From Thraustochytrium aureum (taxonomy: Eukaryota), in assembly GCA_012862495.1 (NCBI GenBank), contig BLSG01000113.1, positions 66,865-86,864 on the forward strand: a DNA stretch of 20,000 nt, read 5' to 3'. A model generated the notes under the pieces. It was not told where the DNA came from, searched no databases, and saw only the letters and a list, made by a program, of their open reading frames with translations. The first letter of the stretch is position 1, and each line of letters opens with the position of its first letter. The translations under genes and the position numbers were made by a program. This document shows positions 5,707-19,689 of the stretch, piece by piece.

Positions 5707-5866
5707 GCGGCGTTCTGGGCTAGCGGCATCCCCACGCGGCGGCGTTCTGGGCTAGCGGCGTCCCCACGCGGCGGAGTTCTGGGCTAGCGGAATCCCCACC
5801 GGGCGGCGTTCTGGGCTAGCGGAACCCCACTCGGGCGGCGTTCTGGGCTAGCGGAACCCCCACTCG
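5707..5866. repeat. minisatellite, 5 x 32 bp (consensus GCGGCGTTCTGGGCTAGCGG + ~AATCCCCACGCG)
   Basis: Units start at 5707, 5739, 5771, 5803 and 5835. Confidence 0.95.
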
Positions 5867-5959
5867 GCGCCGTACGGCGTCTCCATGTACTCTCAATGGA
5901 AAGAGTATAGCAGTGTTGTCAAAATCTGAATCTATCGTCTATGTCACGTGAGCTGCCGA

Positions 5960-10288: not shown

Positions 10289-12368
10289 TCATCGTCAAGT
10301 GGCAGGCAGTTGCTCGGGCCCAGGACGCCTTCCTTGGCCTTGGCCTTGGCGTCGATTCAGTGAGAGAGGGGCATGGTGCTCGCACCCAACCATTGCGAAA
10401 CGGGACGTGAACGCAGAAAGGAGGCGCAGCCCAAGCCGAACCGCCGGCGGTCGTTAAAAAAACGTCCAGGCGACTGTGATAGGTTGATTTTCTTCTTTTT
10501 CAATCGAACTCGCGCTGGCACTCTCTCTGCATGCCCAGCTCGAGAGTACTCGTTCGTACGCGTTTCCCTCGAACCTCTGAATCTAATCTGAACTGCTGAC
10601 GGCCGGTCCTGTTCTGCGGTTGTGAATTCGGGCCAAACTTTTGTTGATGTTGTGCAGACGTTGTGCAAACGCTCAACGGAAACGTGTTCACTCAGAGCTG
10701 GCCAATCTGAATTCCTTCCGAATTCTGCTGTGCTGACTCGCCATCAGAATTCATGCCAGTTGAGAGCCACTTCTCTTCGCCTTGCTGCCGGTAGCCGCAA
10801 CCGTCCCACCGCCAATTTGCGTCAACGGCGTGGTCAAATTGACACCCCCTGCTCCCCACTGCCACGGGAACTGCGAATCCGTCTCACTTTTCAGTCCCGA
10901 GCACGGCGCTGCACCGAACGCCCACTACCCAGTCAGCAGGCGCGGGGAGTTTCATCTGCTGAACAAGGCCCCGACGCGGCCTGGAGGAGGAAGCCAGCCT
11001 ATCCCAGGGCCTCCTCAACCCCGGAGAGAGCAGCGACTTTACACATGCCTCAAGCTCTAGCTCTAGCTAGAGAGGCCGTTGAGATTGCAAAGGAATGAAT
11101 CGCGCCTCCCATGCGAACGCGCTGAAGCATCTGCAGCGGCGACCAGCCGCCCTTCGGTACATTTGCGAGACGCGGCGCCAACCAAGGTGAGTGAGCTTGA
11201 GAGCTTGAGAGCTAATGCGCACGAGGCTCAAGCACAACATGGTAGAGCAAGCAAGAGTACCCGGCAGCGTACTGAGCAAGGCCTCGCTAGGGCAGGGACC
11301 TCCGCACAGCGCTGACATTGTCTTGAGATTGGGTTCGCTTGTAGCAGCGACGTTGACTCAGATCCGCCGTTACTAAACAGCGTCATACGGCTCACTGTGC
11401 TCCGAGCCGACCGCCACCACCAAGCCGTCGAGTTTTCGGCGTGCGCGGCAAAGTGCACGGTCGTGCGGGACATTGTTCAGGCGCGTGCGTCGAGCGCCGA
11501 CTAGTCCGGAAGCTCGTTGGGACAGTTGCAACTGCGGAGACAAGCGCGACGCAACGACGTCGGTCAGCCGTTCGAGGCCAAACTGCGCGCAGCCTCGTGG
11601 CGTCCGAGGCGGTTCAATCAGCAACCCGCCCCGTCGAATGCTCGCTCGCTCGTGGATAACTCGTCGATGCTCGAAGATGGCCGGCCGACTGTCGGTACCA
11701 ACCAATCACAGAAGATCACTTGCTGCGCCCGAAACCCATCAAAAACATCCATCGGAGTTTCATCACAAAGTGAACACATGGGCGAGTCGCGTCCAAGCGC
11801 AAGGCGGCAAGGCGAACGCCACAGCTCGGTCATGTGCCCCACACGATCACCCAGTCATTTTTTGAAAATGAATGCTCCTGAGGCAGCCTGCGACGGGACA
11901 TCTCTGTGCATGACCAAAACCGCGTGCTGATGAGCCGCAACGCACGAACCGGAATCACATTCAGATTCAGAACAGAAGCGTGGAATTGGCAAGGAGCCTG
12001 ACAACTGGTGGCCGACACAAAGGTGTTGGCGTTCGCCCACGGACACGGATCGAATCATCGCACCAAGCAACCTCCTGACGAAGAAAATTGAAGCAAGCTG
12101 GACGAAGGCCTGCGAGCCCCAGCCGCCAGTGGCCTCGATCACAAAGCCGTAAGTAAGCTCTTGCCGGAGAGCAACACGTCAGCGGCCCGGAGGACAGCCC
12201 AAAATACCCCAAATGCGAACAGTGAACGGCTTCTTTGAAGAGCATTCATTAATTCATTCTGACATGAGAAGCGCACGGTAACCCGACCCCAGAAAATAGA
12301 CGAGTACAATAGCCCTCGGTCTATCTTCACACACTCTGTACCTCCTGCACCTCACTTGCACTTGTAGT

Positions 12369-12447
12369 NNNNNNNNNNNNNNNNNNNNNNNNNNNNNNNN
12401 NNNNNNNNNNNNNNNNNNNNNNNNNNNNNNNNNNNNNNNNNNNNNNN
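12369..12447. other. assembly gap (N run)
   Basis: 79 N. Confidence 1.
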
Positions 12448-12806
12448 CCCCTCACAATATATTTGGCTTCAGCAGGGCATAATTTGTCCTTACCGAGAAG
12501 GAGATTTAAAAAAGTTTTTTTAAATTAATTAAAATAAAAATACAAAAGTACTTCCGCTGACAAATGAGGGAAATCAGATGAGAGAGACATGTTTGGTAGG
12601 CTTACATCTAGGGTGCCCCGCTCTCTGACTTCACCTAGGAGTAAAGAATGAAAAGTATCTTTTGTTCTTTGTTTGGGGGCAATAAATTTGCTTTCCGCCG
12701 CCCTACGGGAAACTTGGTATGGTACGAGTACTCGTAGAGAAAGTACTGTCAGTGTTGCAGTTTTGAGCCTGAGCAACATGAGCCAACGGAAGGTGTCCAC
12801 AGAGTG
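12448..12806. other. AT-rich island with palindromes (possible non-autonomous element or regulatory region)
   Basis: Visibly AT-rich compared with the surroundings. Hairpin ATTTAAAAAA-gt-TTTTTTAAAT at 12504-12525; perfect 14-bp palindrome TACGAGTACTCGTA at 12723-12736. Confidence 0.45.
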
Positions 12807-13231
12807 ATGAAGCGACTGGGTGTCATGGAGAGTCGGCCAGTCAGCCAGCCAGTCAGTGGGCTCGTGACAACGGCAAACGACAGACGGCTCGCATCATGGC
12901 GCCGAGCTGTTTGCGTTTCAGCGGTTGTTGTGCAACTCCTCGGTGCAACTGTGCAACTGCCAGCAACATGCCAAGATGAACATCATGGACAGCCTGCCTG
13001 CGATGAGTGAGCGAACGAGGGAGGGAGGGCGGGTTTCATCCTGCATGCAGTGAACTGCATGCCATCGCGTGGCTCGCAGCCTGCGGGTGACGTTGGCCGA
13101 AATGTACAAGACTCGGGTGCCAACATCAAGTCGGCAAGTCGGATTGGCACGCGTTGTGAGCGTCAGGTAATTGCTCGAGGTTGGCTCATTTGGCGCATAA
13201 TCTCTTCGCCTCGCAGCCGCGTTGTGCCAAC

Positions 13232-13244
13232 GAGCGGCAGACCC
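13232..13244 (+). promoter_or_regulatory. GAGCGGCAGACCC motif upstream of the Hcp-like gene
   Basis: GCGGCAGACCC (13234-13244) is identical to the first 11 nt of the paralog 3 upstream motif, in the same orientation, 100 nt before the ATG. Confidence 0.45.
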
Positions 13245-13344
13245 GCAACTTGAGCTACTACCCGGCTGCGCACATCGAAAGCCAGGACAGAGTCGGCTGT
13301 TGTCAGGCAAGGCAGGGCGTGTATTGCGGCGAGACCGGACAAGG

Positions 13345-13935
13345 ATGCGGGTTCGCAGTGCGATCAGCGCTTTGATTGGAGGCTTTCTTGCGGCCAGCGC
13401 GGAGGGCTTCGCGGAGGTCCCTATCCTGAGCATCTTTCTGACCACTTCGCCAGGATCTACGCCAGGACCAGCGCTGGAGGGCAACTCGCGACACCCGCAC
13501 TTCACGAAAGCGGTCGAGCTGCTCTCCTTCGATCTGGACGTAACAACGAAGGCGGCTTATGGCTCCGGCCGGCTAACCACGGGCAAGACCGCTTTCAAGG
13601 ACTTTTGCTTCTCGCATTACGCCAACTCGCCGGCTGCTGGAAAGTTTTTCCAGCTAACTCTGTCGAGTGTGCCGATGAGGGATTTGACCATCTCATACGT
13701 AGCCACGGGGTCCAACAGCGGCACCGTGCAATGGAAGGTTGAGTTCACGGACGTCATCTTCACCAAGAGCGAGATCATCAGCTCGTTCAATGGGGACTTC
13801 AAGCAAGACGTGTGCTTCACTGCAAGGCTCGTCAACTACTACGTCCCTGGCTCCAGCTTCAACGCCCAAACAGACTACCCGGCTGTCTCGTCCGTCGCTG
13901 TTGGGTACGACCTTATGCGCGCTTTAATGCTGTAG
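13345..13935 (+). CDS. Hcp/TssD-like (type VI secretion tube / phage tail-tube fold) protein with N-terminal signal peptide (196 aa)
   Basis: Colinear by eye with the Hcp1 consensus across its length: IFL...LEGNSRHPHFTKAVELLSFDLDV (~I-x-GES-x-D-x-x-H-x-x-x-IEVLSFSWGV), GSGRLTTGKTAFKDFCFSHY (~GGG-x-GK-x-x-F-x-DL-x-FTKY), KFFQ (~PKLFQ), KVEFTDVIF (~I-x-L-x-DVII), QDVCF (~E-x-VSL), VAVGYDL (~V-x-x-GWDL). Preceded by the hydrophobic leader MRVRSAISALIGGFLAASAEG. Confidence 0.78.
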   Translation: MRVRSAISALIGGFLAASAEGFAEVPILSIFLTTSPGSTPGPALEGNSRHPHFTKAVELLSFDLDVTTKAAYGSGRLTTGKTAFKDFCFSHYANSPAAGKFFQLTLSSVPMRDLTISYVATGSNSGTVQWKVEFTDVIFTKSEIISSFNGDFKQDVCFTARLVNYYVPGSSFNAQTDYPAVSSVAVGYDLMRALML

Positions 13936-15580
13936 AGGTTGGGTTGGCGGAGCTCGTCAAGCTTCATGATTGCTGAGAAACGGCCCAAACAGATTTTCCA
14001 CAGATTTTCCTCATTGCGAAAGTTGAGTGCGAGAGCTCGCAAACGACCTGCGCCATCATCGGCGCGTGCCTTGCGAAATCGGGCGCGAGTTGGCTTGTCT
14101 CGTGGGGTGGGTTGGTCTGAGAACCAGCGTCAGGGCCATCTGCCTGCTCGTCGAGCCCGCGGTTTCCCGCTATTGCACGTAAGCGTGCAAGGCGCCCAAA
14201 AGCCCAGGCGACAGGGCTTGACCGCAGCCTGAGACAGGGGGTCAGAAGCCGCGTGCTGAAGAACCGCCTGGCCAGTCCTCTTGGAGCCGTCTGGATGGCC
14301 AAGAGCCTGACAACAAGCGGCCTTCCGATGTTGACGCGAAAGTTCCGTGGCAGACTTGTGGACGATCGATCGCCCACGGATCGGATATGCTCCACCAAGC
14401 CACCCTTTGATAGACAAAGATAGCCAGGCTGCGATCCCAAGCCACCAAGCTTGTCTCCGCCACGTGGTTTGGATGCTTCCCTCAAGGCGAGACGGGCACA
14501 ACTGGAAGAAACGGCGCTGCCCAACCCAAGAAGGTTAGGCAGCACCACAGGGTCGAGGACCCAGCTCAAGATTCAGCGCCATCGTGCGGGCAACTCAAAA
14601 GCAGACGTCCGCCCAAACTCTGTGGCCTCCGCTTTGGCAAGCGGCACTGTCGGGTCGACGGCTCCGCCGTTCCTGCGTTAGCTGCTCCGGGTGCGGACCC
14701 TGCTGTCACCAACCCTGTTCGCGCGAGTTCGGCGGGTCGCGCTGCGGCGCTTCACAAAGCTGCAACGAGGAGCAAGCATGGGGCTATCTATCGTGACGTG
14801 TCGTCAAAGCCTTCCTGCATTTCGCGATTCAAGCCGCTGGCGGTTTGGGCTCGCTCGCCAGCGGCTCGCGCCTTCGCAAGCTCTGCGAAAAACGTGCCCC
14901 AAGTTGCCTGGGCCAACTAGCTAGTGGAGGTACTGATCCGCAGGTGGTCTCCAGCGACTTGCTCGAGTCCGAGTAGAGTCCTACAACTGCAACTGGTGTA
15001 TGCCTCAACAGAACACCATTTCGCTCAACTCCCGGAGGTCGCGGCGCCGTACCGGTAACCAGCAGCAAGAAAGCAGCGCGCTCCATTCCACTTGTCGCTG
15101 TCGTGTCGCTGTTCTGCCATAGATGATCGATCAGCTGATGGGTCGGCCATCGAGACGCTCGAGCTCCGAAGCGCCACCAGCTGAACTGCCATCTGCCAAA
15201 CTGAGCCCAACGCCTTCCCGAACGATCGGAGCAGCGTACACGTCCGCCCCTCTCTGGCACCGACGCGCTTGGGGGCTTCGTGCGAGTATCTCCATGATAC
15301 CGGCAAGCGCATGAAGCGCAATGACGTGCTCCATCGGCGCGCATATCGTCCGGCCGCTGCGGCGGATCCACTGCGGAGGTGCGGTGGAGTTTCGTGGGGC
15401 GTTTCACGGTCGGCGGGCGCTCTCTTCGATAGTCAGCAGGGGGTAGGCCCCTTGTCTGGCTGGGACAGCGCAAGCCAAAGTCAGCGACGAAGAGAAGCGC
15501 AGGCGAGTTAGTGGTGGCTGGCGCTTGGTCTCTTCATGCTGTAGGTGGCTGCTGGAGCGCGAGGCAGTCCTGGCGATCAG

Positions 15581-15600
15581 GCGGCAGACCCCGAACGCAA
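15581..15600 (+). promoter_or_regulatory. conserved upstream motif GCGGCAGACCCCGAACGCAA (paralog 3)
   Basis: 19/20 identical to the reverse complement of 10269-10288; 55 nt before the ATG. Confidence 0.6.
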
Positions 15601-15655
15601 GACTGCATTCGGCAGGAAGACCGGGCACCTGACGAGGAGCAAATTTTCTGACAAG

Positions 15656-17291
15656 ATGGTTCGCTTGGCGGCGCTTGCCACTGTCGTGGTGGTTGCTGCG
15701 GCCGTGCAACATGGTAACGCAGAGGCTGGAAGTCTGCGGAGTATGCTGAACGAACGCCTGCAGGGCAAGCTCGAGGTGATCGCGAACAAGGGGAGGTGCA
15801 AGCCTGAAGAGTCGCGGGCGACTGAGGACCGCGAGTGCGAGGACCCGCTCAACAAGGCCGACGAGGCGTGCCAGTGCCGCGTGCGCTGCAACTGCTGGGG
15901 CGACCCGCACTGCTCGCCCTTCTTCACGGAGTGTCCTGCCTCGACGATGCACACNNNNNNNNNNNNNNNNNNNNNNNNNNNNNNNNNNNNNNNNNNNNNN
16001 NNNNNNNNNNNNNNNNNNNNNNNNNNNNNNNNNNNNNNNNNNNNNNNNNNNNNNNNNNNNNNNNNNNNNNNNNNNNNNNNNNNNNNNNNNNNNNNNNNNN
16101 NNNNNNNNNNNNNNNNNNNNNNNNNNNNNNNNNNNNNNNNNNNNNNNNNNNNNNNNNNNNNNNNNNNNNNNNNNNNNNNNNNNNNNNNNNNNNNNNNNNN
16201 NNNNNNNNNNNNNNNNNNNNNNNNNNNNNNNNNNNNNNNNNNNNNNNNNNNNNNNNNNNNNNNNNNNNNNNNNNNNNNNNNNNNNNNNNNNNNNNNNNNN
16301 NNTTGACGTGCGCGACACGGTGTGCGCTGTCCCCAACTACAACGCCGAGACGTTCTGGCAGGACTCCACCTTGTTCTTCAAGGACGACTATGGTGTCTGC
16401 ACCAACCCGGGCGGCTACGGGTTCGTCCCCCCCGTCCCGGAAGACAAGGTCATCTACAACTGCAACCGGCCCATGGACCAGCCGATCAACGGCAAGAAGG
16501 CGTGCCGTGCCGAGTGCGCTGCTTACGGCGACCCGCACATCTACGATTTTGAGTCCAAGATGGGCACCACCAAGAAGGACTTTACGATCCCGAAGAAGCC
16601 CGTTCGCAACGACCGCATCATGTACTCGTTCTTCAACGAGTTCGCGACCGAGCTGATCCTGGACTCGTGCGATTTTATTGCGGGCGTTCGCTTGTACCTC
16701 CGCAAGGCGAGCAGCAACCAGGTGTGCGGGCAGACCGCTGCAGAGACGGTTTCCCCCGCCGACTATGAGGTGCTCACCTACTTGGCCGCCGACAAGTGCA
16801 CCGAGGAGAAAGACTTTGACCCGAAGACGCGGGCCCGGTATGTGGTTCCCACCGACGGCGACCCGAACTTTGACCCGGTTGCGGAGGGCTTTCCGCTCGG
16901 CCGCTACGTGGACGTCGACGGCACGGTGATCAACGCGCCGCCCACGGTCAGCGGCGTGTCTTCGTGCTCTGGCGGGAGCAAAGTGAACGGGATCATGGAG
17001 ATGGGCGGCGTCCAGCTCACGCTCAAGTGCCACCGCACCGTCGACAAGGTCCCGTACTGGAACGTCTGCGTGCGCAGGAAGGAGGTCGTCAAGACCGAGT
17101 TTGACCCGAAAGCCAAGAGCTTCCGCGACCTCCAGCCACTTAATGATGACTTTGCCACGATTGAGAAGGACGGCAAGACCTTTGGCTGGTGCGCGACCGG
17201 CAACTTTATCAAGAAGAACGGCAAGCGCACCGAGGACTTTCAGTTCCGTCGCGTGGGCCAGTACCACGTGTTCCAGTTCTTCGATGCGTAA
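15656..17291 (+). CDS. Secreted Cys-rich GDPH/VWD-like protein, paralog 3 (spans gap 15955-16302)
   Basis: ATG in gacaagATGGTT, the same context as paralog 2. Signal peptide MVRLAALATVVVVAAAVQHGNAEA and CNCWGDPHC lie before the gap. After the gap: DVRDTVC...CAAYGDPHIYDF...TFGWCATGNF...FFDA*. Confidence 0.9.
15955..16302. other. assembly gap inside paralog 3
   Basis: 348 N; the equivalent region in paralog 2 is ~295 nt. Confidence 1.
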
Positions 17292-17540: not shown

Positions 17541-19689
17541 TCAAGCGCCGCTAGACCCCTTCTTGCGCACAATTGCACCAGGACGCAATGAGCGCCGCTT
17601 GGAATCCTGCTTGAGGCGGCTGCGCGTCTCGTCGAGGTACGCCCGCAGCGCCTCTTTGACCTGGGCAACAGGAATCGACTTTGAGCAAATGGTGAACGAC
17701 ACGCCCTTGTCCTTGATGATATACCCGATGCCAACGCCGTCGAGCGAGACGGGGCCAAAGCCAAACAGTTTGAGCGCCGGGTTGCCGCAGTTGGAGGTGG
17801 AGAGCACCGTCTCAGACAGCTTGGCGTAGCCCGGGCTCGAGTAGAGCAGCGGAAGCGCCACGTCCGCTCCGTTGGCGCGCCGCCACGCGCACTTGAGCGC
17901 GTACAGGTGGCGGTCCACGCCCAGCCCATCGCTAGCGCGCGCCGTCATCGCCGAGTGGGCCTTGGCGGCCGCGCGAAGCGCGGACACGGCCTCTTCGGCG
18001 GCAACCGGCTCCGGGCCGTTGACCAAGTCCACGTACGCCTTCGCTTCCTTGGTGACAGAGCGGCCCGCCTCCGTGCGCCCTTGCAAGAATCGCTTGGTCA
18101 TGACGCTCTCGTACGTGTTGGCGACCTCGCCAGTGACCTTGAACACGCTCGCCATCATGCACTGCTGCACAAACGCGTCGGGAGAAAGCTTGTGTGACAC
18201 GATGAATTTCTTGCCGTACCCAGTGTACTCGAGGCTGTCCACCTCGTAGGCAGCCACCATGTCTTGCAGGTGCGCGTGCGCCTCGCGGATCCCTTGCCGG
18301 ATCGATTCGTCCAGCTCCAGCTCGATCTTGCGAGGCCCGCTCTCGCCCTTGCCGTGCGAAGGCGAGGACGACTCTGCTGCCGACCCGGCGCGCGCGTAGC
18401 GCACGCTCTGCAGGTGGTTGCGAACCGCTCCCTTGCCGCTGATGGCCTGGGCGAACCGAATGATTGTGTCGGTGAACACGTCGCTCACAACGCGGAGCAC
18501 GGTGTGCCCGTCAGCCGGGGTGTGCTCAAAGTTGACCGAGGCGGACCCATTCTCCGAAACAATGATCTCTAGCTTGTCGTACCACCGCGACATGCAGGTC
18601 CCGACCTCAACCCCGTCCTCGGTGAGGCGGGTCGTGCCGCGCAGCGCATTTGCGGCCGCTTCGGTCACCGACTCGGGGCTCGAGCCAATGTCCAGGCACA
18701 GGACGAAGATGGCCTCGTCGATCACGGCTAGCTCTGCTGCGTTGCCCTCGCTCAGGCCGGCGATCTCGTTGCGATACTTGGCCCAGGTGGTCCTGCGTTC
18801 AGACGTGAGCACGCCGAACGCGTCCGCCGCGCACGTGGCGTCGTCCACGTCAAGCGCGTCGTCCTTGATCGCCTCCAGGTTTGCTGTGATCTCGTCCAGA
18901 GAGACCAGCAGCGACCCGTCCTCTGCGACCACGTCGAAAGTGTAAAACTGGTTGCGACAGACCACGACGATGTGGCGCGCGTCGTGCTTGGTCACGATCG
19001 AGTCGCTGCCGGGGGCCCGCGGCCGTGCGGGATGCGCGCGCTGCCCACCACCTTGGTGAACTGCGACATGCAGAGCGGCGTTTTGCGGACCATGTCTACG
19101 GACAGCGTCTCGCTTCGCACGGCGTGGACAAACTTGCACATCGACAGAACCAGCGCGCTGGCCCGGGCGACCTGGTCGTTCCGCCCAGGCGTTGGGTCGT
19201 CCTCCAGCACAAAGTACGGGTTGACGTTGATCGTCACCGGGTCGTCCATCAGCAGGTAGGCGTCATCCCAGAACGCGTCCACATAGTTGTCTTTGTCGGC
19301 GCTGTAGGCCTGCAGCTCCGCCTGCATCGCGCGGCCCGCCTCGCCGCGAAGCTCGAGACGGCTTCGCGGGTCTCCTGCAGCTCCTCCTCGGTCAGCAGCG
19401 GTGCCACTGTCTCGAGAAACCTGTCGCAGGTATCCTCCAGCTCGGGAATCGGCAGATGTGGCAACTCGTTCTGAAACCTGAACGTCCCTGTAGCTTTCCT
19501 CTCCTCGGGCTCGCTCACCGCCGGCTCGAACTTGACGCTCTTCGTCTTGGACGCCGCCGCCGCCGCCGCCGCCGCCGAGCTCCGCACATTCTCCGCCGCG
19601 CCGGCCTGCGGCGCCTTCCTCAGCACCTCCTCTTTGAGCCTTTCCCTTCGAGCGGCGCGACCGCCGCTCGACGACTTGGCGTTGCCCAT
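17541..19689 (-). CDS. Choline/carnitine O-acyltransferase, resembling fungal YAT1-type carnitine acetyltransferase; two apparent frameshifts (~19345, ~19018)
   Basis: Three consecutive frames give LPHLPIPELEDTCDRFL; then FWDDAYL...INVNPYFVLEDDPTP...PLCMSQF...ARIP; then HIVVVCRNQFY...LTSERR...FVLCLD...RWYDKL...FEHTPADG (catalytic HxxxD)...SPDAFVQ...TYESVMTKRFLQGRTE...GVDRHLYAL...LSTSNCGNPALKLFGFGPV. Confidence 0.9.
19553..19576. repeat. (GCC)8 encoding poly-Ala in the acyltransferase N-terminus
   Basis: Read directly; translates as SSAAAAAAAASK. Confidence 0.9.

Follow-up and report, generated by a model that had tools for sequence, protein, structure and literature searches.

Identification of a Divergent Hcp Homologue

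A gene for a very divergent homologue of Hcp (TssD), the tube subunit of type VI secretion systems (T6SS), was found in a 20,000-nucleotide stretch of the Thraustochytrium aureum genome (contig BLSG01000113.1, positions 66,865 to 86,864; assembly GCA_012862495.1), hereafter called the window. The open reading frame (ORF) at 13345–13935 is almost certainly a true Hcp homologue, and it very probably belongs to the host. Its product is read here as a domesticated, fast-evolving and secreted ring of Hcp fold that would bind partners outside the cell, a reading to which we give a probability of roughly one-half. Coordinates are compiled in Table 1.

The initial annotation had recognized a 196-residue Hcp-like ORF with a motif series colinear with Hcp1 from the first strand to a terminal G(W/Y)DL, and both points were confirmed by profile searches, alignment and modeling. 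The Pfam profile PF05638 (T6SS_HCP) matched residues 44–143 with an E value of 6.6e-6 and 26.9 bits, above the cut-off of 23.5, and the Hcp chain 3v4h_A of the PDB was matched with an E value of 1.2e-5. A profile of 90 Hcps, retrieved with a query that included the 196-residue protein itself, scored the protein at 35.3 bits, and the maximum among 500 shuffles was 6.9 bits. PF05638 was present in 30 of 30 ESM Atlas feature matches, the top score being 0.94 (200 of 256 features). The TssD subfamily model TIGR03344 (NCBIfam; threshold 58.9 bits) gave no match at an E value of 0.1.

The structure model showed the Hcp β-sandwich with one helix, in which all strands of the ring-lining sheet were present and colinear, and its top structural matches were Hcp structures. 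The matches to phage tail-tube proteins and to tube proteins of extracellular contractile injection systems were clearly weaker than those to Hcp, and phage and viral collections yielded no match to the protein. Retained features include the long loop and the terminal G-Y-D-L strand. Compared with other Hcps, the protein has approximately six additional residues ahead of the first strand and a seven-residue insertion behind it. Prokaryotic and viral sequence searches revealed no close relative, let alone a near-identical bacterial sequence; the best protein match (P0011) shared 32% identity.

The protein resembles T6SS Hcp/TssD (PF05638; structures 3eaa, 3v4h, 1y12, and 4w64) in profile, in colinear strands and helix, in the terminal G-[WY]-D-L and in its best structural matches, whereas it differs in its eukaryotic host, its leader, the lack of any other T6SS gene seen in the window, a possible cysteine pair and an identity of at most 32%. 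Profile and fold place it in the Hcp family, and by leader and context it is not a T6SS component. When all six frames of the window were scanned with the Hcp profile, this gene was the single match. As the initial annotation had stated, no other T6SS gene was found in the window, where 10 other ORFs were scanned with Pfam.

Host Origin and Transcription of the Gene

To place the gene in its host, 6 of 12 listed sequencing runs were compared with the window, and the Hcp gene was found in runs from four studies. X1 is a DNA run, X2 and X4 are probable RNA runs of one study, X3 is a probable RNA run of another study, and X7 is a DNA run of a fourth. The depth of X1 over the gene was 5–6, compared with 2–8 in most other covered bins. 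Two X1 contigs (12958–13772 and 13800–14555) joined the gene to flanking sequence, 387 nt of it upstream and 620 nt downstream, and the second contig includes an element that is repeated near 11987 and in other contigs. Independently of X1, X2 covered 13345–14010 and X4 covered 13345–13920, with the unique flanks uncovered in both. The last X2 contig ended 75 nt past the stop codon in eight A's absent from the genome, which likely mark a poly(A) site. X2 also covered at least 99% of the thiolase gene, two GDPH-motif genes and the carnitine acyltransferase gene of the window. X3 held 13515–13773 with one difference, together with part of GDPH paralog 3, and X7 held the X2 form of the Hcp gene. 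From the gene-only cover in the probable RNA runs X2 and X4 and the A tail in X2, the gene appears to be transcribed, with a polyadenylated product.

In light of these data, contamination by bacterial DNA is very unlikely, and so is a chimeric assembly. It is true that all true homologues found are of prokaryotic type, that the gene is intronless, that the source data look mixed (X1 comprises 7.9 million contigs), and that none of the listed contigs reaches from the gene to GDPH paralog 3. Against this stand the lack of a close bacterial sequence, the A tail and gene-only cover, the presence of host genes alongside the Hcp gene in X2 and X3, and the X1 contigs that link the gene to both flanks, the downstream one with a window-repeated element. 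The other host genes in the window are intronless as well. The gene is taken to lie physically in host DNA, and its placement in the initial annotation, together with the 5′ end of GDPH paralog 3 (start at 15656) on the gap-free stretch 12448–15954, was confirmed; this stretch is bordered by runs of N at 12369–12447 and 15955–16302.

Codon usage lies inside the host range and gives no evidence of transfer. The G + C content at synonymous third positions was 0.73 for the Hcp gene, 0.80–0.87 for the thiolase, acyltransferase and GDPH genes, and 0.69 for both the WD40 gene and ORF 4271. The earlier remark that the gene uses more A/T-ending codons is correct in comparison with the thiolase and GDPH genes but not with the WD40 gene and ORF 4271. 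The host-codon adaptation of the Hcp gene was 0.52 (unbiased expectation, 0.31), compared with 0.46–0.48 for the WD40 gene and ORF 4271 and 0.64–0.79 for the other four genes. As judged from codon composition, this adaptation shows amelioration and not a recent arrival.

Divergent Forms and Rate of Change

A second copy of the gene, a paralog of roughly 85% identity (83–91% alike over the compared pieces), was present in X1, X2, and X4. The main form in X2 and X4 differs from the window in 25 of 591 coding bases (4.2%). In neighboring genes, 25 of 5268 bases differ (0.47%; Fisher p = 8.5e-13 against the Hcp gene) among the seven X2 pieces listed, a count that leaves out a piece of paralog 2 with at least three differences. 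The residue is replaced in 15 of the 21 changed codons of the Hcp gene, and synonymous divergence is high as well (8 of 144 sites). Among the differences listed for neighboring genes, 4/4 in the thiolase and 3/4 in the acyltransferase are silent, and 6/8 in GDPH paralog 2 replace a residue. Because X1 contained no copy at 95–99% identity, an allelic or strain origin of the X2 form is favored over its being another paralog. In X2 and X4, a bubble at 13630–13745 represents two versions inside that sample. The divergent forms could be explained by any one of old balanced alleles, gene conversion and relaxed constraint.

These numbers also bear on the idea that a transferred gene is transcribed and drifting with little or no function. 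A ratio of replacement to silent change (pN/pS) of approximately 0.7, which is consistent with relaxed constraint as well as with selection, and a divergence nine-fold above that of the neighbors would fit this idea, as would the lack of a homologue in other eukaryotes. However, the frame is open in both gene forms, both X2 indels are confined to the 3′ untranslated region (UTR), the paralog is likewise covered in probable RNA runs, and the codons are host-adapted. Moreover, the synonymous divergence is unexpected from drift alone, while old balanced alleles or gene conversion would fit it. Drift with little or no function is given a small probability.

Prokaryotic Relatives and Origin

An export leader was found by hydropathy and by eye in 7 of 90 related Hcps, including P0011. 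Fourteen genome loci were fetched with P0229, and approximately 5 kb on each side was examined. Five of them carried leader-bearing Hcps, from an Actinomycetota, three Verrucomicrobiota and one Nitrosopumilaceae archaeon, and no T6SS gene was detected among the 45 ORFs scanned at these loci (E value 1e-8). By contrast, every one of the nine leaderless loci yielded one or more T6SS core genes when 18 ORFs picked from them were scanned (E value 1e-8). The leader-bearing prokaryotic Hcps (P0011, P0222–P0229; L001, L007, L008, L013, and L014) are thus like the protist protein in combining a leader with an Hcp domain, and, like the window, they are without a T6SS gene within approximately 5 kb; some occur in two copies. 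They differ in being near canonical Hcp, with Pfam scores of 60–149 bits compared with 27 bits for the protist protein. No description of leader-bearing, T6SS-free prokaryotic Hcps was found in the literature listings searched.

P0011 aside, the 14 leader-bearing rows scored below 92 others against the protist protein. Two unrooted trees, which comprised 68 and 60 rows after thinning from 113 and had no other eukaryotic row, placed the protist protein among leaderless rows on a branch of 2.5–2.6 (median, 0.4). A clade with P0011 was not rejected in approximately unbiased (AU) tests (p = 0.87 and 0.91), in which the free search proved to have missed better trees. The Hcp gene was likely acquired from a prokaryote. 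This agrees with one half of the initial proposal, which saw a horizontally acquired gene rerouted through the endoplasmic reticulum (ER). The other half needs revision: Hcps that carry a leader and are encoded away from T6SS clusters are frequent in bacteria and were also found in an archaeon, so the rerouting may not have been invented in eukaryotes.

Several of the Hcps show further features. The archaeal locus (L008:4065-5576) has two divergently oriented leader-bearing Hcp genes beside radA and no T6SS gene. One Verrucomicrobiota locus (L007:5016-6343) has two leader-bearing Hcps in tandem, the second with a C-terminal extension, and another (L014:2026-2982) has a leader-bearing Hcp with such an extension. 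P0223 carries a twin-arginine-like leader, which suggests export in folded form. P0005, with 1066 residues, comprises six tandem Hcp domains and is a possible single-chain ring.

Predicted Secretion and Assembly

The hydrophobic leader noted in the initial annotation is evident in the hydropathy profile, with a nine-residue maximum of 2.2, two arginines ahead of it and small residues at positions 19–23. Residues 1–20 are unstructured in the model (pLDDT < 50). The start context of the gene is similar to those of two neighboring secreted-type genes. From this predicted signal peptide, secretion of the protein is considered probable. Ring formation is slightly favored.

Hcp is reported to form hexameric rings and to take part in effector recognition as chaperone and receptor (PMC13213661). 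With injection lacking, the ring itself would be the simplest remaining use, and the following course is proposed for the protist protein. It would enter the ER co-translationally through its signal peptide, with cleavage near residue 21–23, and would fold there, perhaps with a Cys88–Cys157 disulfide. It may then self-assemble into an Hcp ring, either on its own or together with the paralog, and be released to the cell surface or the ectoplasmic net, where the lumen or rim of the ring could bind cargo or foreign surfaces much as bacterial Hcp binds effectors. The fast protein change suggests that these partners come from other organisms, such as bacteria, prey, a host or a virus, and that they may drive it. 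Because genes for a sheath, spike or baseplate were not seen in the window, the protein would not inject. Action at a biotic interface is a tentative proposal, to which we lean slightly less than to the secreted binding ring itself. A more specific version, in which ER-secreted and disulfide-stabilized homo- or hetero-hexameric rings or tubes form a small fast-evolving family directed against or acting on microbes, for instance as cargo carrier or effector decoy, is doubtful.

In addition to the pN/pS ratio given above, several observations weigh against the secreted binding ring. X2, X3, and X4 were classed as RNA by guess alone, the A tail consists of eight letters in one contig, and X1 is not independent evidence if, as it may have been, it was the source of the assembly. 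The leader is only moderately hydrophobic (2.2, compared with 2.8–2.9 in GDPH paralog 3), and the protein lacks an N-glycosylation sequon. The structure model was guided by an alignment of bacterial Hcps, an unguided single-sequence fold was poor (pLDDT 29), and the strand register near Cys157 varies from alignment to alignment. Of 20 columns that are invariant or nearly so in an 88-row Hcp alignment, the protein retains only 7, so ring contacts may be lost. Homologue searches found none in any other eukaryote, and the gene may therefore be young or narrowly spread.

The replacement of 13 of the 20 conserved columns would fit a secreted host protein that has lost oligomerization and uses the β-sandwich as a monomeric binding or adhesion domain; the long branch and the unmatched TIGR03344 also agree with this. 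On the other hand, the strands of the ring-lining sheet are all present and colinear in the model, and a lone Hcp would presumably expose its sheet edges. A monomer is unlikely, although it is the strongest of the competing explanations.

Secreted rings could also be stacked into tubes as a structural fiber, a surface or ectoplasmic-net filament possibly built with the GDPH-motif proteins. The fold is shared with tube-forming proteins, the terminal G-Y-D-L strand and long loop are retained, and three secreted-type, cysteine-rich GDPH paralogs lie nearby, with cover in the probable RNA run that also covers the Hcp gene. However, stacking may be hindered by the extra residues ahead of the first strand and the seven-residue insertion, a polymer would not usually show such high amino-acid turnover, and eukaryotic gene adjacency is no sign of partnership. 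Bacterial Hcp, moreover, requires a baseplate and sheath to form long tubes in vivo. A fiber is therefore improbable, and the secreted ring that binds partners outside the cell remains our preferred reading.

Comparison With Known Systems

The known transfers from T6SS to eukaryotes are effector enzymes. The closest precedent of this kind is dae: in ticks and mites, these T6SS amidase effector genes have been domesticated, and their products are reported to have a predicted signal peptide and to be secreted without an injection apparatus (10.1101/2020.04.10.036376). Like dae as described there, the protist Hcp gene is a T6SS-derived eukaryotic gene with a signal peptide that has diverged from the bacterial form; unlike dae, which encodes an enzyme (cargo), it encodes the structural subunit of the tube, for which no catalytic site is known. 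Among labyrinthulomycete proteins, a T6SS label and a predicted signal peptide are shared by A142921 of Aurantiochytrium limacinum, labeled “type VI secretion protein?” from a 65% Phyre2 match and low-confidence sheath-like matches (PMC12221091). It differs from the protist Hcp in its length of 279 residues and its composition, and by eye, unaligned, it is not of the same family; Hcp is not mentioned in the main text and four supplements searched of that paper. No description of a eukaryotic Hcp was found in the literature searched, which left most subscription papers outside.

If the proposed reading is true, a tube subunit has been kept, expressed and duplicated, and the secretory pathway of eukaryotes can make new use of a structural component from an injection machine of phage origin. 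In the more specific version above, the rings or tubes would be the first working eukaryote-made assembly of tail-tube fold known from our searches. The finding bears on the role of exported, T6SS-free prokaryotic Hcps, since the same rerouting would have occurred in bacteria, an archaeon and a eukaryote, and it adds a concrete candidate to the proteins secreted by labyrinthulomycetes, about which little is known.

Genomic Context

Other genes on the scaffold encode a carnitine acyltransferase, a thiolase and a WD40 protein, along with three cysteine-rich GDPH-motif proteins that are paralogs of one another. The best named relative of the acyltransferase was that of Hondaea fermentalgiana (57%), and in a tree of 25 rows it grouped at 100/100 with Hondaea and four further rows, separately from the oomycetes and fungi. 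From this one gene, the host is likely a labyrinthulomycete.

Table 1. Features of the window discussed in the text.
Feature	Position	Strand	Basis or remark
Hcp-like protein gene, intronless, 196 aa	13345–13935	+	ORF with ATG start; profile matches; X2 contigs cover whole length
Predicted signal peptide, residues 1 to ~21–23	13345–13413	+	Hydropathy; unstructured in model
Hcp/tail-tube domain, ~residues 27–192	13423–13920	+	Pfam, structure model, structural matches
Cys88, in strand behind GK..F.D motif; possible partner of Cys157	13606–13608	+	Alignments, profile; register uncertain
Cys157, in neighboring strand; possible cross-strand disulfide with Cys88	13813–13815	+	Alignments, profile
3′ UTR	13936–14010	+	X2 contig ends at 14010 with 8 non-templated A's
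Short multi-copy element, also at 11987–12146	14296–14385	.	On X1 contig carrying 3′ end of Hcp gene
GDPH-motif (VWD-like) secreted-type gene, paralog 3	15656–17291	+	N gap inside, bridged by X1 and X2 contigs
GDPH-motif (VWD-like) secreted-type gene, paralog 2, 531 aa	8632–10227	−	
GDPH-motif secreted-type cysteine-rich gene, further paralog	5960–~7630	−	
Carnitine acyltransferase gene	17541–19689	−	Used for host placement beside Hondaea

The acyltransferase frame is broken twice, near 19015 and 19357, where X1 and X2 both show small indels; the breaks are therefore likely assembly errors. All three GDPH paralogs are cysteine-rich and well covered in X2, and the complete copy carries two GDPH motifs. 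For these paralogs, Pfam gave nothing beyond RGM_C at an E value of 0.067, no solved relative was found, and no related locus was found among the metagenome contigs searched. The multi-copy element has many look-alikes in X1, X2, and X4 contigs and resembles a decayed coding repeat. The region 12448–12780 is AT-rich, unlike the remaining scaffold (bins of 0.44–0.47 G + C), with several X1 indels, and a tandem repeat of approximately five 32-nt units lies at 5707–5901.
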